Part shown: piece by piece, positions 6,006 through 64,000 of the stretch
Position numbering within the stretch: the first letter of the stretch is position 1
How the letters are laid out: the number at the start of each line of letters is the position of its first letter
Source of the DNA: Eledone cirrhosa
Taxonomy: Eukaryota
Reading direction: 5' to 3'
Assembly: GCA_964016885.1 (NCBI GenBank)
Contig: OZ024743.1
Location: forward strand, 63,612,001 to 63,676,000
DNA: 64,000 bases
Notes under the pieces: model-generated
What the model saw: only the letters and a program-made list of their open reading frames with translations
What the model was told of the DNA's origin: nothing
Databases searched by the model: none
Made by a program: the position numbers and the translations under genes

Positions 6006-6563
6006 CAGGGTGGTCCAAAAAGTTGTATCCATTTTATTATTGCTATCATTTCTAAGACTGTGATTTATCAGCAGGATGGAGCAACACTGCATTGTTCCAA
6101 TGCTTCACTCGAATACCTTCATCGTTACTTCCCTGAAGACAGGCTCATCTCCCATCGTACGGACCACCCTTGGCCTGCACATTCTCCTGACCTATACCCT
6201 TTGGATTATTTTCTGTGGGGATTCCTAAAAGTCAGGGTCTATGCTAACAATCCCCAAACTACTGATGCGCTCAAGAATAACATTCGAACAGAGATCAGGA
6301 GAATTCCCCATGACATGTTGGACAGGGTCATTACAAACTTCAATGTGCGAGTAGCCACAGTGATTCAGTGCCAAGGAGCTTGGAGCGAGCACATTATAAA
6401 CTATTGAGCTGTGCTCGCAAAATGGTGGTATGCGAGGAAAAAACTTACACCACACAAAACTTACATGTCTGTAAGACAGGTCTATGAAAAAAATTGTAAA
6501 GTTTTCCTTTCAATAGAAAATGCTACTGTATCAAAAATAGATACATCTTTTTGGACCACCCTG
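6006..6563 (+). mobile_element. Internally deleted Tc1/mariner element of rosa/DD41D type
   Basis: TIRs cagggtggtccaaaaag..gtatc / gatacatctttttggaccaccctg at TA; ORF 6060-6407 QQDGATLH...WPAHSPDLYPLDYFLWG. Confidence 0.9.
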
Positions 6564-7162
6564 TGTATATATATTCATTTTTATCTCTCTATACAACAAC
6601 AACAAGCATTTAAAGGTCATATTCCTCACTAAAGAAAAAGTCAATCTTACGAGTCCTGTGACATGGTGTCCTTTTTGAGGCAACAATTTACAGCCAGATG
6701 CACTTCCTAGTCCCAACCCTTTTAGTCACCTCCTACAACACCCAGTCATTCTAAACTGAATACATTCAGTAACCATTTTCGTCTCTCTATATAAACATAT
6801 TGATATTTCTCTGGATTAGAGGAATGATAGAAGTGAATATGGGCAGCCATTTTCCTCTGCCAAGTAAATTAAGGCAATGGAAAATAAAATGTCAAGCCAG
6901 CAACATAACAAAATAGCCACAGTAGACAGTCAGTAATTTATTGACCATCAGTTAGTTAACCATCCAATACTTTATCTTCTCAGTCATTTTTACATGTGGT
7001 TGATGTATATATAGTCATTGATGATTTATAGAATATATATATTATTAAAAACTAATTATATGTGTATAGTTGTGTACATACAAATCAATATCATGAGAAA
7101 CACACATACACATATGTCCAACTTATGCTACAATGGCACAGCAGTCGTTAAATGATGGTGAT

Positions 7163-17142: not shown

Positions 17143-18137
17143 GTTGCATTTATCTTGTTTTATGTTCATACGAGTTATCACTAAGTCACAACTAGTGACC
17201 TCAAGAGACAACAAGGTTCGCCATGTTCAAGAAAGAAAATACATACACACACATGCATCTTTAGGTTTTTAGACTTGTGATGTACTTATATTGACAGAAT
17301 CTTCCTCTATTGGAACGGACATATTAGCAGGCATACCCTCTTTTTAAAGTCCTTCAGTATTATATCAGGTCTATTTGCATCTATTTTTCGGTCTGTTTGG
17401 ATGCTAAAGTTCCACAAGATTGAGATGTGATCTGTTTCAAGTATGGGAGGTGGTTGATGCTCCCACCAATTCTTTTGATGGGGCAGGTGAAAATGCTTAC
17501 ACATTATCCAATGTATGTATTGTGCAGCTCTGTCATGCCTGTTTAGGTATTCGGTTGGAGCTATAGGACTGCACATTGAAATTATATGATCAATGGTCTC
17601 TGGTTGTTTTTTACATACACGGCATAATGGGTTGCATCCATTTTTTATTATGTTGGGTTGGTAATTTTTTGTTGGCAGACACTGATCTTGTGCTGATATA
17701 ATCAGTCCTTCAGTCTCCGATTTCAGTCCAGAAGATGCCAACCACTGATGGGTTAAAGTTTTGTCAACATCAGGATTGTTAGCTCTTTCTGGGTATTTTC
17801 CATACAGAGGCTTTTCTTGCCATTTCTGTAGCAGTTCTTTCTTTGCAGTTACTTTTACCTGCTTTGCTTTTTCTGTGTTTTCCATTTCAGCAGTAAATGG
17901 GACTTCTGAAATTTGTAGTCCATTACTGTATCTTTGTGCATCTTTTGTAATGGAGTATGATTTTTGATGCTTTCGTGTTTCAAAACGAGTTTGATCATCC
18001 AATCATGTGATTCCCTTAGATATGTAGATAATCCAATTGTTACAGTTTTCAACGCAATATCTAACTGGATTAACCCACGTCCTCCTTCTTTCCTAGGGAG
18101 ATATATTCTATCTGTATCTGCCTTAGGGTGATGCATT
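17141..18137 (-). mobile_element. R4/Dong-like RLE retrotransposon, subfamily A, truncated
   Basis: HPKADTDRIYLPRKEGGRGL; CRVC..ETIDHIISMC zinc knuckle; RHD; NRPDIIL; ends in (TAA)n. Confidence 0.88.
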
Positions 18138-18548
18138 CTGCAGCCTCAGACATTCAGGACGTATCAGAAGGTTCTTGCTGTTCCCAGCAAGTATGCCTTT
18201 TGAAGAGTTTCAAAAAACGGGGCTGGACTAATCTTCTTTAACCATCCTTGGAAACTCTTTGAGATAGTACCTAGTGCACCTATGACAATTGGGACGACCT
18301 TGATTTCATGGCAGTTCCAAATCTTTTTTAACTCCCACTTTAAAACCGGGTATCGGTTAATTTTCTCTCTCTCCTTTTCTTGCACTCTCATGTCAAATGG
18401 GCAGGCTACATCTACAATCAGGCACGATCTTTTTTCCTTGTCCAAAACCACTAGGTCAGGCCTATTGTGTTCTAATTTCTTGTCCATCTGTATCCTAAAA
18501 TCCCATAGCACCTTCACCTGATCGTTTTCTCTCACCGACTCTGGCTTA
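18138..18548 (-). mobile_element. R4/Dong-like RLE fragment, subfamily B
   Basis: LWDFRIQMDKKLEHNRPDLVVLD...IVDVACP...PIVIGALG...LQKAYLLGTART. Confidence 0.88.
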
Positions 18549-18566
18549 TATTACTATTATTATTGT

Positions 18567-19425: not shown

Positions 19426-20660
19426 ACAGCATCAGCAGCAGCAGCAACAACAACAACAACCACAGCAACAGCGGCGGTGGCGGTCGTAGTACCAGCAGCA
19501 ACAACAAAAGTAACAGCAGCTCTGACGACAACAACAAGAAAGAAAAACCAATCTCGTTTGCAGGTATCGTAAAGAACCTGTAAACCATCCTTATAACAAA
19601 TGAGGAATTACAGGAAGCAAAGAAGATGGTGACGAAAACCAGACACCGAGCAATCTGCAAGGCAGCCGAGAAATTTTTTCGAAACTCAACAGCACTGTAC
19701 GGTCACGTACCGTACAGTAAGCACAAAATCACGTAGGGTTGAAAGAGCCACAGAGGCTCAAATACAAAAAAGACTTAGGGTCTGTGTGGCAGCGGAAAAC
19801 GCATATCACCCGAGGCAAGAAATATTCCACCGTGGACGTGCTTTTTGCCACACCCCAGGAGGCAAAGGCTCAATCCTTAGTGATCCCAAGGAGCGAGGAA
19901 ATGGTGTTGATGCCCTCCTACTGCAACCATCACCAACAAGAACAAGTGAAAGAGTAGAGCTGGTACCCCTCTCCGACCTTACAGAATCTGACATGGAGTG
20001 TGAGGTGGGAGAGGGATGGCAAAAGGTCGCAAGAAGGCACAAACGCAGAAGCAGCGCATCGTCGCCTTCGAAAAGGGAGGGAAGAAATGAAAAAAAGGGT
20101 AAAGGCTACTGCAAAGAGACTTACAGCAGCAACACCACCAACACCATCACCACCCACACTAGCACCACCATCACCACCGGCGGCAACCCCACCGCCAACA
20201 ACAACAACACCTTCAAAACCACCACCACAAGCACCAACATCGCAAACACAACAACAAAACACATACACTCAGCAACAAGAAAATAGCAGAACCACACCCC
20301 ACCCCCAGAAAAAGAAATGCACAGCAATAAATACACACAAGAAACTAATGACTTACATAATTGAACACAGACATTTCACAGCACGACTACATAATACCAG
20401 CACTAATCAAAACACCAACGAACATAAGACTGGTAAGAATAGCACAGAAACAATACACAAACATTAAAACGAAATTCCCCAACGCAGTTGGTGATTTCAG
20501 AGACCTAGGAGGGACTATCAATCGAAGAGTATATTCGGACATACTCATAGAAGAGCCGACGACCAGCCGAAGGGACGATTCAACGGTCCCTTCACCAGAC
20601 GATCAAGTGAAAAGGGATGGAAAACCATCCCTCCTCTACGAAAAGTACGGTAAGTGATCT
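19018..20660 (+). pseudogene. Tx1 ORF1 pseudogene (low-complexity S/N- and P/T-rich)
   Basis: Stops and frameshifts; HITRGKKYSTVDVLF..MPSY is homologous to YIARGRQYSTILVLF..MYPS at ~35.6 kb. Confidence 0.7.
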
Positions 20661-20688
20661 TTCCCATCTTTTCCACTCTATTTTAAAC

Positions 20689-23600
20689 ATGACCTCACTC
20701 AGAATAGGCAGCATAAATGCGCGTGGCTTGGGGTCGTCATGGAAGCAGGGTCACCTGCTCAACGACCTCAGGTCACTAAACATAGATGTAGTGGCCATCA
20801 GCGAAACCAGAATCTCCGAAGCACGGGCCTTCGCACCGATCTTCGGCGGCTACGATGTATACGCATCTCCCAGCCGTCCTGGATCGGGGGGAGGAGTTGC
20901 TGTGCTTTTTCGGAGAGGTTTGGATCTCGCCATGCGGGCCATCTTCCTGGACCCAGAGGGTAAGTTGGTGGTGCTGGACGTGACCAGCGGAGACGGGCAA
21001 GCTTTCAGGCTAGTGGCCGTCTATGCCCCGACAGGAGCAGGGCGGCCTGATTTCTTCCGGTGTCTGGAGACCTTTCTTGGAACGTCCCGCTCTTTAGTGT
21101 TAGTGGGCGACTGGAACGGGATCTTAGATGCACGCTGGGACTGTGTGGGATTAGCGGATAGGAGTGGAGGGTGCAAGAGCCTCACCAACCTGCTCAGGCG
21201 TTTTGAACTGTCTGACAGGTACCGATTGGATTTCCCGAATGTGCCAATGTGGACTTGGACAAATCGTATAGGGTCATCCAGATCATATCTAGATAGAGTA
21301 TTTTGTAGGGAAATAGATAGGTCTAGCATAGGCTGTCCACAATTCAAGATAGTCAGCTACCCGGACCACAAATTCGTGATCTGTGTGCTTGACTTAGATA
21401 GGCTTCATAGACGAGGACCCGGCTACTGGAAGCTAAACGCGTCCTTACCAGCGCGCAAGGCCTACAGAGACCGGATTAGCGAACTAGTTAAGCGGTGGTT
21501 GACGGGGGCCATCGTCAACAACAAGTGGTGGTTTGCTCTGAAAAGAGCGATTAGAATAGAATCCATTAGGTTTAGTAAGGCTTTAGCAATAGAGAAAAAT
21601 AGAGCAGAGGGAGAACTAGTTAGAAAATTAGACGAGGCGCTTAGCAAAGTCATTGCGACCGACGTGCTGGCGGCGAAATTGGCCCTTGACCAATTCTTCA
21701 ATGCAAAGCACGAAGGCTGCGTTGTCAGAGCTAGGGTGCGTGCTCTCAGACACGAGGGGACGAAAGCCGTTCAATGGGCCCGAGTGGCGGAGGCGCGTCG
21801 TGGAAACAAAGCCACGATCTGGTCTTTGGTGGACCACGACGGGCGCATGCTACTCGATCCCGGGCAAATGTGTGAAGCTTTTCAGCGACACTTCGCTCAG
21901 CTGTTCTGGGGCAGCAGCGGGCCGGATCGAGGGATGGAATTTAGTGTCTACCGCGACGGACTGCCGCGGGTCTCGGCCACTGAGGCGGAGTGTTGCGAAA
22001 AGCCGATATCAGCCGCTGAAGTACGGGAGGCAATGACTGGCTGCACAAGGGGTAAATCGTCTGGTTTGGATGGTCTGCCCTATGAACTTTACGTACAGAT
22101 GCCAGACTTGTTCCGAGGCCTCTTGGCGGACGTCTACTGCAACTGGCAACAGAACGGGAGAATTCCCAGCTCTGTGAGCCGAGGAGCGGTGGCACTGCTG
22201 AGAAAGGATCCGAACAAGGGGGATGACATAGATAATTTCAGGCTTCAGAGGCTGGATCGCTACCTTGCACAGCGACATCTGCTATGTGGTGAGAGTGAAC
22301 GGTCATCTTTCGGAACCGTTCAACATCATGCGCTCGGTCTGCCAAGGATGTCCCCTCTCGTCCCTCTTGTACGTATTGACTCTCGAGCCATTACTGCACA
22401 AACTGGAGACGTTGAGGGGGGTCCCGCGTGAACTAGGATGCGGAAGATCCGTTTAAGCATATGTGGACGATGTCACCGTAGTGGTGTCGAACGCCAAACA
22501 CATCGAGGCGATCGGCATTACACTAAGAGAATACGTGGCGGTGACAGGAGCAATGATTAACCAGGAAAAGTCAATGGGCCTGCAGCTCGGGACCTGGAGA
22601 GGCAGGTCCATGCCACCCAACAGCGTCGTCGGGCGCTGGACGGACAGACCGGTTAAATTGCTAGGGGTCTGGTTCGGTCAGGACCTCCAGACGGACAAAA
22701 ACTGGGATGAGGTGACGAGCAGGGTGTCTTCTCTCACCCAGAAATGGGCGGAGAGGAAGCTATCCCTGAAAGGTCGAGCGGAGGTGGCTAACGTGTACAT
22801 CGCGTCTGTCATCTACTACCGCCTGACCGTCGTACCTTGTCCTAAGCCCTGCCTGACTGCGCTGGAGCGTTTGCTCTTTCGCATTTTGTGGAAGGGATAC
22901 GCTCCGATGGTCAGGCGGTCTATCTGCTGTCAACACCCGCTACGTGGAGGGCTGGGCATGCCGTGGCTGATGATGCGCAGACACGCGCTCAGTCTATGGC
23001 ATCTCCACCTCTTCCTCGACGGTGATCAGGTGTGGTTGCCGTTTGCAAGATGCGTCTTTCCCCAGCTTGTCTCCTTGACAGAGCTGCAGTCCTGGGTCAA
23101 GCGAAGACCGAGAGGGAGCGCTTGGAGACTGGAATGTCTTCAGGCGCTCACAGCCCTCGACCAATCGAGCACTGCGATCGGTGGAATCTCCACCTTGGCG
23201 TTCTATAGAGGATTCGTGGAGGGGAAGTGCGACGACGTACTTGGGGAAACTCTAGGCGTCGACGAAAATCAACTAGCCAATATCTTCAGAAGAACTTTCG
23301 GGCCGGGGCCTATGTAGAACTTCCAGAAATCCCTGGCCTCGCAGTGCTACCGAGGAGCTTTGCCAGTTCGGGATAAACTCTACAAGCATGGAGGTGCCGT
23401 CAGCCGGGCATGTCCGAGATGCACGCAGGGCGACGAAACCATCCTGCATGCACTCGTCCAATGTCTGAGCATTGCTGACCTTTGGGTTTCTGTCGAACAC
23501 CTGCTGTCGCGTGTAGGACGGATCTGGCTATCAGCTGTGTCTATCGTGAGGATTGCCTCGCCCTCTTTCTTTAGCCGGGAAGGGCAGGCAGTTTTTTTCT

Positions 23601-23827
23601 GTCTGGTGGCCATGGCGAAAGAGATAGTATTGTCGACACGTTTGAAAGGGCTGAAGATGAGCACTTACCTCTTCGGTGATGCCCTGATTAACTTTTTCAA
23701 ATTTCATTTGAAAAGGAAAATCAGGGTAGAGAGGGAAGTGCTCTCTTCCCAGCAGTTTGTTGAAAGATGGGTGAGAGAAGCAAGAATGGCCCGAGTGAAT
23801 GGGCCTACTCTGAGTATGTGTCTGTAA
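20689..23827 (+). pseudogene. Tx1 ORF2: APE endonuclease + reverse transcriptase, with internal deletion and stops
   Basis: SINARGL, SET, GDWN, LDR, DH; RT QGCPLS and YVDD; CPRC...HALVQC; deletion near 22240 and stops at ~22455 and ~23316. Confidence 0.92.
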
Positions 23828-46505: not shown

Positions 46506-47074
46506 TTATTAAGTTGGTGTTTGGAGCATAATTTAACAAAGATTCTTACATAAAATTATAATGGAAGGCTTAAATATATATGTGAACACTTTAAAACATA
46601 CATTTCTTCTTTTTTTTTTTTGTCATAGAACCAGGGGTGATTTCAGGCTGGTTGATAACAAAAGCTTTTAGAAAGGAAAGATACATTGGATAATGTAGTC
46701 CTAGATAAACTATTATCATCATCATTGTCATTTTAATGTTTGCTTTCCCTGCGAGCAAGGAATGGATGGGTTTATGCAGACCAAGCACGTACTGAAGCAG
46801 AGCCACTGATCTCCTAGGAAAGCTAGGGACGTGTGCACTTGTGCGCTTATAGAAACTAATGACCTGATAATCATTATTTGAACACCATTGCTCATATATC
46901 TGCTGGATCATGGCTGAATGGTTGATAGCAGATTCTCTTGAGCATTGGACAAAATACCTTGCAGTATTTAGTTTTATGCTTCAGTTAGTTAATCTGTCTG
47001 AAGCCCAGAAACTCATCAGGATGGAGTTTATCCCAATTTCATTTGAGTATATATATATATATATATATATATAG

Positions 47075-48265
47075 TTGCAACACTTAATGTTGGCATTCTC
47101 AGAGGTAGATCTGCTGAAATAGCGGAGATGCTGGAGAGAAGGCATGTGGATGTGTGCTGCATGCAAGAGGTGAGATGGAAAGGTGCCTCTGCGAGACTAG
47201 TCGTAGGCAAACATCTTAGCTATAAGCTTTTTTGGGTAGGTAAGGATGATGGGTTAGGGGCAGTAGGCATTTTCCTGGCTGAGAGATGGATAAATAAGAC
47301 AATAGAGGTAGTTCAAGTTAGTAATCGAATAATTAAGATTAGATTAGTTGTAGGCAGAAGACTACTGACAATCATCTCTGCCTATGTTCCCCAAGCAGGC
47401 CTAGGCAAAGAAGAGAAAGACTGCTTTTACGAGCAACTTTTACAAACAACCGCAATGACAGAGGATGGAGACATCGTTATGCTAGCAGGGGACTTCAATG
47501 GTCATGTGGAACAGCTCCAGGATGGTTACACTGGGGTACATGGTGGGCACGGTTACGACTCAAGAAATGAAGAAGGAGTGAGACTTCTTGAATTTTGTGA
47601 TGCAAGTACACTGACTATTTGCAACACTAACTTCCAGAAACCTGCCAACCACCTAATAACCTACAAATAAGGTGAGCACATAAGCCAGATTGACTTCTTA
47701 CTAGTTAGGCAGCGGGTGAGGCAGATGGTGTCAAATACCAAGGCATACCCTGGGGGAGAATGTACCCCACAGCATAGGTTAGTCATTAGTGATATCTCAG
47801 TGATCAAGAGATGGAATGAGACATACAGGAAGGTGTGGAGAAGAAAGGTCTGGAAGCTAAAAGACCTTTCACTAAAATACAAATTTAGGAAAGCCCTTCA
47901 AGATGTGTATGACGAAAAAGAAGACGATTTAGAGATGTATGATATAGATAATAACTGGAATTTCTTACGTGACAACTTACTGCAGGCTACTGATGAAACT
48001 TGTGGCTGGAGCAGAGCTCCAACCAGACAGAGAGTGACCTGGTGGTTGAACAGCACAGTAGATAAGGCTATTAGAGACAAAAGACTAGCATGGAAGGCTT
48101 GGAAAAAGGGTGGGAGTAGAGAAGGATATACAGCCGCTAAGAAAGAAGCTAGACATCAGGTGTACTTAGCACGCAGGGAGGCTGAGAGTAGGAGGTTTGC
48201 CAATGTTCTGCAATGGGAAGATCAGAGGCGTGCGGTGTTCCACATTGCAAGGCAGTGTGTCAATG
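47075..48265 (+). mobile_element. RTE LINE 5' fragment (APE endonuclease pseudogene)
   Basis: TLNVG, CMQEVRW, SAYVPQ, GDFNGHV, QID, QHRLV; in-frame stop at ~47670. Confidence 0.92.
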
Positions 48266-48404
48266 CAAATCAATGTCAATGCAAATGTTGTTTCATTTGT
48301 AAGAAATCATAAGGATGATTTCTTATGAATGAAACAGTTCTAGTCCTGTAGAAGTCATTTCTATAATAAAATAAATATATATATATATATATATGTATAT
48401 ATCA

Positions 48405-51057: not shown

Positions 51058-51589
51058 ATTCTCTCATGTCCTTTGTAAAACACCAAATAAACTGTTGCTT
51101 CATGGACCTGGATGGTATAAAAATATGTTTGTCTACTAGACTTAAGTGCTAAACAAAAATACCTTGTGATATTTAGTTAAGTCAGTCTATTTATGTTCTG
51201 ATTTCAAATCGCACTGCGTTCAACTTTGCCTTTCATCTTACTGGAGTCAATAAAGTACTAGTTCATTATAACCACTTCAAAATTATTGATGATATGCCAA
51301 AGTATTTTTTTTAATCATTCTGTGGCCTCATGCCAATGTTTCAAACCATTATTATTGAGTACAAGTTAAAATAATGATTTCTTGCATTCTAGAATTTTGA
51401 TTTTCTGCTCACTGTTTCCTTTACACTGAGGGGAAAGAATGAATACCACAATATCCCATTTCCCTAAAAAAAAAAAAAAATCGGTCCAAACTAACCCTTT
51501 TGTTACCAACTCACCATGTACTGTACCATCCTTGGTTATTTGATGTAAAACTGTTTGATTTAATGTCTTCATACTTAAACCCCAACTAG

Positions 51590-51745
51590 AATCATCAATA
51601 CCACTGCTGCCACTGTAACAGCCACTACACCATTTCTGCTGCTGTTGCTACTAGCACCACCACCACCACTCATCATCGCTACCACCACCACAGCCATTGT
51701 CGCCATCACTGCCGCTGCCACCACCACCATCACTATCAACACCAT
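51590..51745. repeat. Degenerate (CAC/CAT/GCC) triplet repeat
   Basis: Directly visible. Confidence 0.85.
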
Positions 51746-52341
51746 TGTTCTTTGGTGCTATACAACAGTGCCTCTACACTACATCATTGCTGTACACTAC
51801 ATCAATGTAAATTAATCAATTCTGTTTTGCTGTGGGGGGTATGTTTGGTGGTGGTGGTGAGGTATAGTGTTACTGTAGTGGTTCATCTTTGTTGTGATGT
51901 AGGAAATGTGCAATATGTGTTGTGTTATGTTGTTTGGTGGTGTTTGTGTTTCATATGTGATGTGTGGGTGGTAGTTATGTACTTTGAGTACTGTTGAGAT
52001 ATATTTAGGCCCATAACTAATAGTGCTACTGCTAATGGGAAGTGTGTTCTTTAGATAGGTGGTGACTTTGTAGCCTTTGTGTTGCGTCAATCATCATGAA
52101 AAGGCCTTGAACTCTTGATGAAGATACAGGAGCACTGTTATAATACACAAGCATTTAAACCTCTCCATAAGGTTGATTGAATTTTGGGGTCAAAACCTAG
52201 CATTTGTATAATAAATCAAAATACATAAAATAATACAATAAAATACAACTTGCTAATACAGGTTTCTCATTTATATATATTTTGTCTTTATTGTCTATTT
52301 AGTTTACATTCTGTTTACTGATTTAGTTATTTACTTATTTA

Positions 52342-52535
52342 TTTTACAGGCAAAACCAACTGGCAGGAGACCCAGTGGTAGACCCTGAGCAGGATGGTTG
52401 GATAACATCCATGAGTTTGGCTGGTCTCGCTTGGGGATCCAGCTGGATCAGTTGGAGATGGTTGCTTCTGACAGGACCAGCTGGAAGGAGTGTTTGAGGA
52501 CTCTGCCTCCATGACCCTCTCAGGAATAAGTGTGC
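52342..52535 (+). mobile_element. RTE 3' end fragment
   Basis: Same family as 4925-5100 and 15790-15975. Confidence 0.8.
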
Positions 52536-53796
52536 AAAGAAGACTTTTGTACATGCCTGGGGTTGATAAAGAGTCAAGGATTCCAAGAACAGATTCAGGG
52601 TCTAAATTGTTTGAGGAGTATGTGTTGTGTGGGTTGTGCAATATTATTGGATGAGAATTGTGTACAATGTGAGTTATTGATGGTGCATTGGGTGTGTCAT
52701 ATTATCAGGTATCAATTTTGATATTTTACTGGGTGGGAATCATCTAAGGTATTTGTTATGTGAGTTATGTTATTATATTGGATAACCTTTGTATTAGGTT
52801 AAGTGTTGAATAGTTTAGAATGCATTAGATATGATGTGTTTCTGAGTTGGAAGTGCCTGATGTAGGTGTCAGATATGGGTTGGGCCAATTTGAATATATT
52901 TGGGGACTGTGAGTAGTGTTGTGTATTCTGGTTTCATTTTGTTTATGCTCTTTCTTCTGCCTCATGTTTTAATTATTATTGAATGCAGACATTGTTCAGT
53001 GGTTTAAAAGTTTTCTTCGCAATTATAAGGTCCCAAGTTTGATTCCACTCTGCGCCATGTTGGCCAAGTGTCTTTATCATAGCCTTGAGTAGATAATGAA
53101 TCTTAGTAGACAGAAACTATTTGGAAGCCCATTGGTTGGATTGTGGCTGTAACACATATTATGCCATGCTGGTTCAGCTTGAGAATTATGTTAGGGGTAC
53201 ACCTGTCTGTGGAATACTCAACCACTTACATATCAATATATGAGGTTGATGGTCAGTTAATCAAACATCTGAATGCTCAATGTTGAAACTGATGGAGGAT
53301 GTATTATCATCATAGGTATAATTTTTCACTTTCATACCCAGACAAATTGTTTATTTCAATTAACAGTTTCTTCATTTTTATCCATGCAATGTTTTAATCA
53401 AAAGAGATTTAGATGTATATAAGTTTACAGATATAGAATGCGGATAGAATGCTTTATGGTATTCGTTCCGGCTCTCTGCTCTTTGAGTTCAAATCCTGCA
53501 GAGGTCAACTTTGCCTTTCATCCTTTTGAGGTCGATAAGAAAAGTACCAGTCTAGTACTTGGGTTGATACTTACTCTATATCTCTTTCTTATTTCCTCTC
53601 TCTCACTTTCTATCTTTCTCTGGAAGAAATCTGCTGTACTCAGGCCTGGAGAGGGATGGACTCCGCCAGGCTTAAAATGACCAAGAAATGCTGTATGTCA
53701 ATACGGTGTACCTACGACTGTATCAAGAGTTACGAGACCATACATACATACATACATACAAGTTTACAGAGATTTTCATTCCTGTCCTTGATGTCA

Positions 53797-53990
53797 GGGC
53801 GGTGGATTGGCAGTATCGGTAGAGGGTCGGACGCCATGCTTTGATGTATAGAGTTACGGCCCTTGCCATTCTGAGTTCAAATCCCGCCGAAGTTAACTTT
53901 GCCTTTCATCCTTACGGGGTCGATAAAATAAAGTACCAGTAATGCACTGGGTTATTGCTGGCCTTGTGCCAAAAGTATAAACAATTATTT
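53797..53990 (+). mobile_element. SINE family A
   Basis: Full consensus. Confidence 0.9.
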
Positions 53991-54636
53991 GTTTGGACAG
54001 GCATATCCCAGATGTTTGTAGCCAAATTATTGGTGTGTACTGTGTTTGGTACATGTTTATACTATAAAATTAACAGAGTCATTAGAGTAAATGCTCAGTG
54101 TACTTTGAGTTCAAATCCCACCAAGAATAACATTGCCTTTCATACTTTCCAGGTTGATAATATAATACCAGTCCAGTTGGCAGTTGATAGGCAGAATAGT
54201 TAACAAGTTGGGTGGGATGCTTTGTGGTTTCTGCTCTAGCACTGTGTGTTCTGAGTTGAAATCCTGCATCATTCTGCCAGGAGGTGCAACCAGTAATGGA
54301 TAGACCAATGAAAACATAGTTTCCTTGACCCAATCTGACGATTGGCACCTTTCTTTATTATGCCACTTCTTATCCATTGTTATATTGAACAGCCAGCATT
54401 TTATCCAGTGGACATAACTGCTGACTCCATTGTGTCTGTGAATATACGTGGACTTTACAAGGTCAAGGCAGTCAGAAATTCTGTGTTTAATTGTCCCATT
54501 GCAATGATGTTAGCGTCTTCAACTCCCCCATCCCACCACCACCACCACCATTATTTTTTATCATTATCATTATTTCTGTTGTTGTTGTTGTAGATTAATA
54601 GAAACATTTGAGCATCAGAAAAACAAAATACCTTAA

Positions 54637-55250
54637 CTCTTTAGCATTTACATTACTCTATATTTACTATTATATTTTCACAGTAAAGGCTTTACCTCAC
54701 ATAATTATCTCACATAATATCGAATCTTTGAGATTTTGATATTATTTATTTTGGGAACAATATCTTAACATAAGTATGAGCAGCTGATTCGAACAGAAAG
54801 AGGTGAGAGAATTCTGCCCGGATACAGACGGTTTAAATGGAAAATGGTTGAAGTATTTGTTCTAGCTCTTTACATTCTGAATTCAAATCCTGCGGAGGTC
54901 AAACATTGCACGCATTCTTCTGGGTCTGATAAAATAAAAAAATTAGTCGACTATGGGAATCAATTTATTTGACTTCCCCTTCTTTCCTAAAGTTGCTAGC
55001 CTTGTGTCTAAATTAGAAACCGCTATTATTATTGTGGTTACTCAGTAGAGCATCAGACAACATACTTTGCAGCATATAGTTACGGTTCTTTATGTTCTGA
55101 GTTCAAATCCTGTTTAAGTTAAACTTTGCCTTTCATCCTTACTGGGTCAACAAAATAAAAGTACCAGTAATTCACTGTGGTTGATTTAATTGACTTTTTA
55201 CTCCTCCAAAATTGTTGGCCTTGTGCCTAAACCAGAAACCATTCTTATTC
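54637..55250 (+). mobile_element. piggyBac-type MITE followed by two older SINE A copies
   Basis: 54637-54850 matches 12562-12766; SINE consensus at ~54850-55025 and 55035-55245. Confidence 0.75.
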
Positions 55251-56552: not shown

Positions 56553-56765
56553 CGTTTCTGAATTTGTTTAGCAAGATTCTTTATCTGAAATCGTGTGTTG
56601 AAACCGATATTGTTATACTTTGGGAGGGTCATGTTGCCAATAAGAAACACACGCACCAGTTGCTTTCACTTCAATTTAATTTATTATATATTTATAAATT
56701 TACAAATTTATAAATTTCTGGTTGGTTGGTTGGTTCCACAACCAGATAGTTGTTTATATATATAT

Positions 56766-56810
56766 AGTCATAGTTCTTTCGTCACACACTCTGTGACCTC
56801 TTCAGTGACT
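56766..56810 (-). ncRNA. Minimal type I hammerhead ribozyme motif (left arm)
   Basis: agtca-CTGAAGA-g-gtcaca[gagtg]tgtgac-GAAA-gaac-TA-tgact. Confidence 0.72.
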
Positions 56811-56943
56811 GGGGATTTCTTTCTTCGTTTCTGTGCCTTTCCTTTCTTCTATCCTACGCCATTTTTTGCCATTTTGCCACACACAAACAAAATGGCGTAG
56901 GATAGAAGAAAGGAAAGGCACAGAAACGAAGAAAGAAATCCCC

Positions 56944-56988
56944 AGTCACTGAAGAGGTCACAAAGTGTGTGACGAAAGAACTATGACT
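56944..56988 (+). ncRNA. Minimal type I hammerhead ribozyme motif (right arm)
   Basis: agtca-CTGAAGA-g-gtcaca[aagtg]tgtgac-GAAA-gaac-TA-tgact; stem I agtca/tgact, stem II gtcaca/tgtgac. Confidence 0.75.
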
Positions 56989-57139
56989 ATATATATATAA
57001 ACAACTATCTGGTTGTGGAACCAACCAACCAACCAGAAATTTATAAATTTGTAAATTTATAAATATATAATAAATTAAATTGAAGTGAAAGCAACTGGTG
57101 CGTGTGTTTCTTATTGGCAACATGACCCTCCCAAAGTAT

Positions 57140-57320
<181 letters not shown>

Positions 57321-57514
57321 GATAAATCTACCAAGAGTTTACGGTAGTGTCCAATCCGTATGAAGAACTCAATGTAATCCGGATATCATGGAAAGAAGAG
57401 ATGCAATGAAAAATCACTTACGGTGAAAGATAAACGGAATACAGAGTCAAGATAAAATATTAAAAAAATAATGAATAAAACAATGAAACAGTTCCTTATA
57501 TTAAACAAAAAAAG

Positions 57515-57669
57515 TTCATTATTTAACGATCGTTTCTAGGATATATATGTGTTAGAATTGGCATGCATATTCAACAGATCTATGTACAAAATTATACAAA
57601 ATTATACAAACTATCAAAATTAAATATACATACCAAACACATATATATGCCGTCTTCAGAAATAATGAA
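57515..57669 (-). ncRNA. Type I hammerhead motif with long stem II (left arm)
   Basis: Reverse complement of 60015-60169. Confidence 0.68.
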
Positions 57670-58099
57670 ATATATTTATTGATAATAACAACAATTCAAA
57701 ATTTCAGGTCCGTTTGGGAACAGAGTTCAAATTGACCAATGAAAATACAAAAAATTTTATGCAGTTAGGTGTGTGTATATACATGTAATTAACTTCGTAC
57801 ACATATTTGCACGAAGATATATGTTCACATGCATACGCATGCCAAAAAGATGTATGTAAATACAAAAATTCAAGGCTAATGTCTCTGTAAGTTTATAATC
57901 TACAGATAAAATGCGTATAGACACGCAAATATAAAATAAATGTATACACACATTCATATACTCACACATATTCGTACACTCACACACACACGCGCGTATA
58001 TGCATAAACATACACATAACTACGAACTTAAGATAACCATAAGTACACCACCAACACATCAAACCAACCACAATATCTCCTCAAACACAGAATTAACGA

Positions 58100-58530
58100 A
58101 AGGCTGCAACTGCAGAAACAAAGCAAACTGCCCACCAAAAGGAAATTGTCCCGCTAACAACATAGTCCACAAATGCAATGTCAAAACCAAAGACTCCACC
58201 TGCTCACACATAGGAGCCACCTCCAACAACCCCAAGACAAGGTTCAACACCCACAAACACAGTTCCAAAAATGCCGCACCGGCTAACACAACATCTCCAG
58301 CAGAAAAAATCAACAGTTATAAAAACAAGAACACAGAACATGATTTGACCCGGAGTGCGCCCAAAAGAGCCACCCCCCACCAAAACAATAGAAATGAATG
58401 CAGATCATGCTCCCAAGAACCACTTGAAATAATGAAATCTAAGGACATCCTATCAAATAAACGACAGGAACCAACCATATCGTGCAATCACAAACCAAAA
58501 AAAACATTTAAATATTACAAACCTAATTAA
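58100..58530 (+). pseudogene. Penelope-type GIY-YIG endonuclease C-terminal fragment, hypermutated T>C
   Basis: CNCR...CP..GNC...NIV(Y)KC...(Y)IGAT...KTRF..HK...C..C..E...NKR.E...C.H pattern of PLE endonucleases. Confidence 0.85.
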
Positions 58531-59436
58531 CAACATCATTCCAGAAACCAACATACAACCCAATTTAAATGCTAGTTAACCCACAAATTTAACCTAACCA
58601 AAATTCCACCACAGATGAGAACACAAAACACTGTGCAACCACAAACTGTGAAAAACCTTCAAATACCACCAACATACACCCAGCAATTCAATCTATAGAT
58701 CAACCCTAATTCACTCAACCCTCCATTAAAACTCCCCCACAGACAAAATACAACAAAATATCGCGTATTCAACGACAGAGAAACAATCCCCAGCACTATA
58801 GACCCAACTAATACACACCCTAGAAATACATCTACAATCCGGTTCCAAACTTGGTCAACCCAAAAACTTAACCCAATTGGCTCAAAAATAGTATCCTAAT
58901 ACAGATGGATTACAGAGTGTCATGTAATCATAGAATGGGATAGGTTTTAGATGTACACCCAGTCAATATATTCCCTACAATTTTTGAAAAAATATGTATA
59001 TGTATGTATATATATGTATGTGTATACATGTATATATATGTGTATATATATGCATGCATATGCATATGTGTATGCATTAATTTCAATCTCTGTTTACCCA
59101 CAACTATATTCCACTATTGATAAAATACAATATCTGTCCCAACTATTACATACCCAATTAACATATACTATAGAAATTAATATATAATTTTCAATTTAGT
59201 TAACCCACAATTCATATTCCACCACCGATGCAATACACCACCTGTCTCTTCCCCACTACCAAATTCACCCCCCAACACTGATACCACAACGTTAATAATT
59301 CCAACCTAGCCACACCATAACCAACACTCTACTACCACCCAACTTCAAAACCCCGCCTCAAACACCACAAACCCAAGCAATTTACACCCCAGAAATCAAC
59401 ACATCAACTATCCTTAGCCCAGCCAACCTACAACCT

Positions 59437-59585
59437 TTGAACCTTGTCTTGGGGTTGTTGGAGGTGGCTCCTATGTGTGAGCAGGTGGAGTCTTTGGTTT
59501 TGACATTGCATTTGTAGACTATGTTGTTAGCGGGACAATTTCCTTTTGGTGGGCAGTTTGCTTTGTTTCTGCAGTTGCAGCCTTT
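59437..59585 (-). pseudogene. Inverted truncated copy of the GIY-YIG fragment
   Basis: ORF 59382-59744 is identical to the left copy except IVYK vs IVHK; breaks off after KTRF. Confidence 0.85.
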
Positions 59586-60014
59586 CGTTAATTCTGTGTT
59601 TGAGGAGATATTGTGGTTGGTTTGATGTGTTGGTGGTGTACTTATGGTTATCTTAAGTTCGTAGTTATGTGTATGTTTATGCATATACGCGCGTGTGTGT
59701 GTGAGTGTACGAATATGTGTGAGTATATGAATGTGTGTATACATTTATTTTATATTTGCGTGTCTATACGCATTTTATCTGTAGATTATAAACTTACAGA
59801 GACATTAGCCTTGAATTTTTGTATTTACATACATCTTTTTGGCATGCGTATGCATGTGAACATATATCTTCGTGCAAATATGTGTACGAAGTTAATTACA
59901 TGTATATACACACACCTAACTGCATAAAATTTTTTGTATTTTCATTGGTCAATTTGAACTCTGTTCCCAAACGGACCTGAAATTTTGAATTGTTGTTATT
60001 ATCAATAAATATAT

Positions 60015-60169
60015 TTCATTATTTCTGAAGACGGCATATATATGTGTTTGGTATGTATATTTAATTTTGATAGTTTGTATAATTTTGTATAATTTTGTAC
60101 ATAGATCTGTTGAATATGCATGCCAATTCTAACACATATATATCCTAGAAACGATCGTTAAATAATGAA
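60015..60169 (+). ncRNA. Type I hammerhead motif with long stem II (right arm)
   Basis: ttcattattt-CTGAAGA-[~116-nt hairpin]-GAAA-cgatcg-TT-aaataatgaa; 10-bp stem I and palindromic stem III. Confidence 0.7.
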
Positions 60170-60519
60170 CTTTTTTTGTTTAATATAAGGAACTGTTTCA
60201 TTGTTTTATTCATTATTTTTTTAATATTTTATATATATATATATATATATAAGCCAACAAACAAAACTAATAGAGAGCTATGCAAAGAGTACTTATGGTA
60301 TAACCCCGAATACAATAGTTCCATTAGTACAACGGTTTAATCAACTGTTATAGAAACACGTGTCAATAAATTCCTTTCAACTAAACTGTATCAATTCAAA
60401 TCTTTCTATTTTTCTCCGGATTACTTTTGGAACTACAACTGGAACCGTCGAGCAAACTCTACGTGAGCTGATAATCTACTGTGTGTAATATTTATATTAC
60501 AACACAACGGAAAATACTG

Positions 60520-64000
<3,481 letters not shown>

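Follow-up and report, generated by a model that had tools for sequence, protein, structure and literature searches.

An inverted Penelope-like insertion in Eledone cirrhosa with ADAR-type A-to-G changes in its GIY-YIG/3' piece and none in its hammerhead piece

A stretch of 64,000 nucleotides (nt) from Eledone cirrhosa, here called the window (assembly GCA_964016885.1, contig OZ024743.1, positions 63,612,001 to 63,676,000 of the forward strand), contains a 2.9-kb copy of a Penelope-like element (PLE) within a (TA)n tract. The copy is folded back upon itself. Its inverted arms, 57452-58247 and 59437-60232, are 796 nt each, surround a spacer of 1,189 nt, and differ in the assembly at one position, 58168/59516. 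An earlier note on this DNA had described near-perfect arms around a spacer of ~1.19 kb, and both are present as claimed. However, the insertion does not begin at the arm edge, 57452, but outside the arm, near 57315. Read along the + strand, the locus consists of (TA)n, an inverted terminal piece, a head-to-head joint termed J, a sense piece of the open reading frame (ORF) and 3' region, 219 nt that repeat the start of that piece in inverse orientation, J again, a terminal piece and (TA)n. One outward end is of the "long" kind (left) and the other of the "short" kind (right), as in the counted insertions of the family. The features are as follows, with unit positions referring to the intact element.

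57137..57314, no strand: (TA)n target, left side, from the sequence; family ends sit in (TA)n
57315..58027, - strand (sense on -): terminal piece, unit 7008 down to ~6294, with the "long" outward end, unedited by comparison with family copy L035
57452..58247, no strand: left arm of the 796-nt inverted repeat, from repeat comparison
57515..57669, - strand: type-I hammerhead-like motif, mirror copy, from its motif
58028, no strand: joint J, where the terminal and GIY-YIG pieces meet head-to-head; one letter fits neither side
58029..59435, + strand: hyper-edited piece, comprising the ORF end (linker and GIY-YIG, frame 58030-58527) and 3' region, unit 2092 to ~3500
59436, no strand: joint of the arms' inner ends, the presumed meeting point of two complementary DNAs (cDNAs); one letter fits neither side
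59437..59655, - strand: the edited piece's first 219 nt again, inverted, with 32 of the same 33 edits; contig depth ~2x that of the spacer
59437..60232, no strand: right arm of the inverted repeat, from repeat comparison
59657..60232, + strand: terminal piece in sense, unit ~6294-6871, with the "short" outward end, unedited
60015..60169, + strand: hammerhead-like motif (stem I 60015-24/60160-69, CUGAAGA 60025-31, GAAA 60148-51, predicted cut after 60159)
60233..60251, no strand: (TA)n target, right side, from the sequence

The GIY-YIG frame lies on the + strand in the left arm and runs into the spacer. Its Pfam GIY-YIG match is weak (E=0.2), and 137 of its 164 amino acids are identical to the family protein. 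In each arm, the hammerhead-like motif (on - in the left arm, on + in the right) is on the strand opposite to this frame, as previously claimed. The insertion cannot encode a reverse transcriptase (RT). Splicing was rejected as the origin of J, because there is no GT at the break.

Reads were examined only on 59090-59684, within the spacer and the right arm. A 305-nt contig (59162-59466) spans joint 59436 at a depth of 6-8 in all three runs of one sample, and in the same runs the arm contig reaches a depth of 11.5-15, ~2x that of the spacer, and branches into both spacer ends. Joint J, together with its edits, is crossed by 10 genomic reads from restriction-site-associated DNA (RAD) sequencing of a second individual, from another sample and another study. 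The fold-back is real. An assembly or library artefact, such as a chimeric read or contamination with edited cDNA, is hardly credible: perfect palindromes are typical of chimeras, and the three supporting runs come from one sample that may be the assembly's own, but the doubled depth with branching on both sides, the RAD reads and the agreement of the insertion ends with the long/short rule of the family all speak against it. At 59516, the read contigs carry the edited letter at full depth, so the assembly's single arm mismatch is unsupported. The idea that this mismatch represents two readings of one inosine was dropped on the same evidence, with the reservation that contigs may hide a variant.

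The motif at 60015-60169 has the core CUGAAGA/GAAA, a stem I of 10 base pairs (bp), an NUH site, a long stem II and a palindromic stem III, and the core positions are kept in 97-98 of 98 family copies. A noncanonical UA stands between the closing G-C pair of stem II and G12, which are adjacent in the canonical form. The 114 matches that an Rfam scan gave at E<=1 are low-complexity ones of the microRNA type, with no hammerhead family among them. Judged by sequence, the motif is type-I hammerhead-like and a predicted ribozyme. In intact units it is in sense, at unit 6665-6800, ~350-500 nt before the next ATG. From the predicted cut, the two insertion ends lie ~70 and ~210 nt downstream. Because both ends are downstream of this site and the motif is whole, the template RNA appears to have been uncut, and ribozyme cleavage does not seem to have defined it. 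Processing by the ribozyme, as had been proposed for this element, does not agree with these ends.

The family to which the insertion belongs is large. A search of the genome (3.0 Gb) with 58060-58560 produced 1,236 candidates; 40 were scored, with 85-86% identity for each except the window itself. One unedited 28-mer has 611 exact matches, and the family therefore has at least 611 copies. Intact units are 7,008 nt long and contain a single ORF of 813 amino acids, read in L039, with RT and C-terminal GIY-YIG. This protein gave no Pfam match at E<=0.1, and a PDB sequence search gave a single weak, unrelated match (E=0.2). The RT/GIY-YIG call rests on motifs and on Atlas neighbors, which at 0.96-0.99 include GIY-YIG/RVT_1 clusters. 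By eye, the protein has DKT, RWR (instead of RWK), a CxCx5C linker, and CxxC and CxH around E and N. The motifs and (TA)n targeting of this young family fit the Hydra clade presented in PMC8557442. As far as the available part of that paper describes them, Hydra-clade PLEs share with this family the RT with C-terminal GIY-YIG, DKT, the CxCx5C linker and CxxC/CxH around E and N, as well as (TA)n targets, a hammerhead, head-to-head inverted 5'-truncated copies and an optional tail at one end. However, the tail here is 137 nt long and strictly at one of two ends, whereas theirs is 30-40 nt.

Partial tandems are found in the family besides inverted 5'-truncated copies. Free ends fall at two fixed sites, unit 6871 (short) and unit 7008 (long), 137 nt apart; 43 short, 40 long, 8 tandem and 2 other ends were counted. 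Every two-ended insertion in L062-L121 has one long and one short end (28/28). In 10 of the 28, the short-ended arm extends further 5' than the long-ended arm, and by our reading each arm holds sequence absent from the other. Neither arm can therefore have been copied from its partner, and two RNA-templated cDNAs are needed. Among the 40 direct head-to-head junctions, 14 connect a terminal arm with an ORF or 3' piece in the opposite orientation. Seven of these 14 (7/40 overall, again by our reading) include the whole hammerhead, and all seven are unedited. Because the same arrangement occurs in these unedited junctions, the orientation at the window is ordinary: an inverted hammerhead arm against an ORF piece is the usual 5'-inversion of PLEs as the accessible parts of PMC8557442 and PMC3846280 describe it.

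Several further regularities are apparent in the family. In the small palindromes L035 5907-6475, L064 1064-1622, L101 8482-9026 and L037 560-1289, both arms end at unit 6656-6660, upstream of the hammerhead core and close to it; the stop could reflect an RNA 5' end (promoter) or the point of a fold-back. Arms break repeatedly at unit 6268-6304, at the edge of a microsatellite-rich region, in L037, L040, L110, L116, L117, L118 and the window; an RT stall or RNA end is a possible cause. This region, unit ~3500-6290 in L031, separates the ORF from the hammerhead region by ~2.8 kb of microsatellite-like sequence, in which insertions of other copies are found (L035). Three-piece junctions with a short extra inverted fragment (L087, L106, L117 and L042) point to template jumps before the arms were joined.

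Compared with family copy L036, the piece 58029-59435 has 233 of its 533 T changed to C and only 6 other differences. On the antisense strand, the one that bears the hammerhead, the changes read as A>G, and their number stays at 213-236 against each of 93 full-length family matches (some loci counted twice). No such burst is seen in 60 ordinary copies, which had been chosen by one unedited 28-mer. ADAR enzymes favor 5' neighbors in the order U>A>C>G. In the edited piece, the antisense strand has A changed at 219 of 425 sites with 5' U or A versus 13 of 103 with 5' G or C (p=1e-13). On the 3' side, 41 of 65 sites followed by G are changed versus 191 of 463 others (p=0.001), and UAG is the most edited triplet (28/39). 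The depletion of 5' G agrees with the ADAR motif given in PMC5625713. However, that source, in the part available, reports invertebrates to be enriched for downstream A rather than G, whereas in the window a 3' G is edited most often per opportunity, so the 3' signal is weaker evidence. Edits extend over coding and noncoding sequence alike and alter 27 of the 164 amino acids, including VYK and YIG. A cluster of A>G on one strand near 50%, depletion of 5' G and preference for 5' U or A form the ADAR signature; the edited piece shows all of them, and this pattern supports ADAR-type editing of an RNA antisense to PLE messenger RNA (mRNA).

The edits stop at joint 58028. In the terminal piece that carries the hammerhead, none of 199 editable A residues is changed (p=1e-40), and only 2 differences from L035 are found in ~710 nt. 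Thus, the claim that A>G changes fall on the hammerhead-bearing strand is correct for the GIY-YIG/3' piece, but not for the hammerhead piece itself. The nearest match of either piece is one and the same genomic locus, L035/L036, so the event is recent.

The two arms have J in common and share 32 of 33 edits, and the spacer adds 200 more; the earlier note had described a T-poor, C-rich composition that continues into the spacer. The probability that a second RNA, edited independently, would show the shared pattern again is p ~10^-14.5. Since the family normally makes two RNA-templated cDNAs (the 10 of 28 insertions above), edits common to both arms point to one RNA that was read twice. Two other statements of the earlier note are supported: that editing preceded the inversion, the mutations being in both arms, and that the edited antisense RNA was copied into the germline.

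Further edited loci of the family were sought with seven patterns, each containing two forced edits. Each pattern catches an estimated 20-50% of edited copies, and the counts are therefore lower bounds. Two patterns matched only the window, two matched nothing, and two gave 5 matches in 4 further loci. The match of the remaining pattern was discarded as a copy that is not hyper-edited, one forced letter having proved to be a family polymorphism. In L127 (4657-5221; G000:C4:21.0 Mb), a small long/short palindrome, the A>G changes keep to one physical strand through both arms; 33 of 99 sites are edited in the paired antisense part and 23 of 65 in the sense arm, whereas the unpaired 137-nt extension has 0 of 54. 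L128 (4900-5147) and L129 (4925-5293) begin at the short end, pass an edited sense arm (23/62 and 25/64) and stop within an edited antisense arm (6/19 and 12/59). These three loci clearly fit templates that were hairpin read-through RNAs. Because editing runs across their sense and antisense arms, the family RT copies edited hairpin RNAs through head-to-head joints that already existed. The fourth locus, L130 (8776-9269), is at a contig end and consists of tail-to-tail pieces edited on one strand, with 49 of 142 sites changed in the antisense piece.

The window insertion probably derives from a single read-through RNA of an earlier inverted copy, edited by ADAR where it was antisense and paired, and copied from both target ends. 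The anatomy, the strand and context of the changes, the joint and edits that the arms share, and the pairing of one long with one short end are all seen directly in the locus. The steps may have been as follows. An earlier, ordinary 5'-inverted copy would have held J, and a transcript through it would have had the order 5'-[antisense GIY-YIG/3' piece]-J-[sense hammerhead piece]-3'. The antisense part would have paired with sense PLE RNA, either from a tandem copy farther down that transcript or from an mRNA in trans, and been edited at ~44%, while the sense part stayed unpaired. The sense piece would escape editing if a tandem-plus-inversion transcript had it in its loop, or if pairing were with the sense mRNA. 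The protein of an active copy may then have nicked the (TA)n target and started reverse transcription within the uncut RNA at two sites 137 nt apart, one for each target end. Two cDNAs of ~2,120 and 796 nt would have passed J into the edited part and been joined at 59436. With a template of the form 5'-[antisense]-J-[sense terminal]-3', the locus is a normal insertion made of two 5'-truncated cDNAs from the long and short sites. Such a process has support in vitro, where, according to the available part of PMC11167929, a PLE protein nicks and extends both strands, starts at two internal sites, uses uncut RNA and is predicted to form a dimer.

Several points weigh against this explanation. The source locus with J is not in the assembly: a DNA search (best 40 of 343 candidates scored) and an exact pattern found only the window's two arms. 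The read contig across J does not branch, and the earlier J-bearing copy is unobserved. In this insertion the long arm contains the whole short arm, and copying by DNA fold-back is possible at the window locus itself. The template strand of the unedited piece is deduced rather than directly demonstrated. The 10 RAD reads of the second individual share one start, perhaps represent one molecule, and show J but not the inversion. L130 shows edited antisense sequence but no visible sense start, and is left unexplained by this model. Finally, the small palindrome L037, outside the counted set, appears to have two long ends.

The lack of a source locus would be explained if the insertion were a one-step chimera. 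RT could have begun on sense RNA, stalled near unit 6294 and jumped to a separate, ADAR-edited antisense RNA, the second arm then being made by fold-back of the cDNA. One untemplated letter is present at each joint, the junctions of L087, L106 and L117 record template jumps, a number of arms have their break at nearly one position (of 80 ends, 3 fall in unit 6260-6310; L037 and L040 are further cases), and PMC3846280, in its accessible part, proposed self-priming on antisense templates for PLE palindromes. However, a fold-back would need to end exactly at the family short end, the 10 of 28 ordinary insertions cannot be fold-backs, and the complementarity that primes a snap-back is not seen at 58247/59436. 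In L127-L129, moreover, RT passes head-to-head joints already in the edited RNA. We therefore regard the chimera as unlikely. Editing of DNA rather than RNA is another alternative: ADAR may have deaminated antisense cDNA hybridized to sense RNA, after which a DNA-level template switch extended the inverted repeat in place. First-strand cDNA is antisense and would be the edited strand, and ADAR2 is reported to edit a perfect 90-bp hybrid on its DNA strand, with the same neighbor preferences (PMC5389660, as partly available). Yet only three sites reacted on that hybrid. The left terminal piece would also have been hybrid cDNA but has no A>G on either strand, the sense arms of L127-L129 are A>G as well, editing there tracks the pairing of an RNA hairpin, and the 60 ordinary copies, all picked by an unedited 28-mer, show no T>C burst. 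This course of events is very unlikely.

Less probable again is the model of the earlier note, a family of nonautonomous, ribozyme-processed PLE derivatives that would give RNA antisense to PLE mRNA. In its favor, the core of the hammerhead is intact and conserved, and PLE-derived nonautonomous hammerhead elements have been proposed (bioRxiv 10.64898/2026.07.22.740005, available part). However, the search that the note had suggested, for other copies with the hammerhead/antisense GIY-YIG junction, returned only the window's two arms; joint and edits are at the window locus only in the searches made. Neither end falls at the cut site, an ordinary 5'-inversion accounts for the orientation, and intact units carry the hammerhead in sense. 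No daughter copies of the insertion were detected in searches by J and by edit patterns. The non-LTR (long terminal repeat) retrozymes of the same preprint are likewise noncoding, hammerhead-bearing, PLE-derived and mobilized in trans, but they are multi-copy tandem units, whereas the window has a single mirror insertion whose ends lie away from the cut site.

The single read-through RNA that we favor has counterparts in other systems, each compared here with the part of the cited source that was available. In vitro, the PAc Poseidon element (PMC11167929) behaves as proposed for the window, with two internal RT starts, nicking and extension of both target strands, an AT-rich target and an uncut hammerhead RNA as template. 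That work leaves open whether both arms stem from one RNA, a question for which the window edits serve as a barcode. It also left later steps unvalidated, and PMC3846280 left the choice between sense and antisense templates open. PMC4209133 describes minimal hammerhead pairs on opposite strands 100-700 bp apart, which is consistent with these palindromes. The Hydra-clade account in PMC8557442 includes, in the part available, no counterpart of the hyper-editing. A-to-G hypermutated avian retroviral sequences (PMC12925331) have about half of A changed to G in an inverted-repeat region of reverse-transcribed RNA, but they are exogenous retroviruses, whereas the window has a germline nonviral retroelement in which the antisense part of a chimeric template was edited, found in two individuals. 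ADAR hyper-editing of double-stranded repeat RNA, including lizard Penelope transcripts (PMC5625713), is similar in 5' G depletion and in clustered A>G within repeat duplexes, but there it was seen in RNA reads, whereas in the window it is written into DNA.

APOBEC-edited LTR elements (PMC4866542) share with the window a deaminase burst that is fixed in a genomic retroelement and read against sister copies. They differ in that the changes are G>A through C-to-U on cDNA in vertebrate LTR elements, with 19 invertebrate genomes at noise level, whereas the window has A>G in ADAR context. By analogy, the window locus can be viewed as their RNA-level counterpart. A literature search found no report of germline-fixed, ADAR-edited PLE copies in genomic DNA, supplements and most subscription papers being outside its coverage.

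Other elements are present nearby. The same (TA)n tract holds a second near-perfect hairpin, 56607-57147, with 259-nt arms, a 23-nt loop and one C/T mismatch (56791/56963). It bears a minimal hammerhead-like motif at 56945-56988 (+) plus its mirror, and is likely a small palindromic insertion of a different PLE family. A genome search with this hairpin gave no matches, not even itself, and is uninformative. Elsewhere in the window, fragments of non-LTR retrotransposon ORFs (endonuclease/RT-like by eye) occur at 20611-23824 (+), 47047-48309 (+), 61041-63998 (-) and 17310-18550 (-), and 5-6 copies of a repeat resembling short interspersed elements are scattered over 51180-55250.

The locus is ordinary in its architecture, but rare as a record of a template that was edited in its antisense and unedited in its sense part. 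Its unusual feature is that an edited antisense part is joined to an unedited sense part and that both are repeated in mirror arms. For the host, the insertion likely has no function. More generally, PLEs may build mirror insertions by two reverse transcriptions on one uncut RNA, at staggered sites, one for each target end, and may accept as template any read-through RNA whose end lies in their terminal region, together with its antisense parts. Germline ADAR marks would then be natural barcodes of template strand, pairing state and number of molecules, and would favor twin initiation primed on sense RNA over the published antisense self-priming. We consider the chances of this generalization to be evenly balanced. 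The locus offers in vivo evidence on how the inverted ends of PLEs arise and which strand is the template, and in it RNA editing acts as a heritable mutagen of a nonviral retroelement, with 233 changes in one event, found in two individuals.
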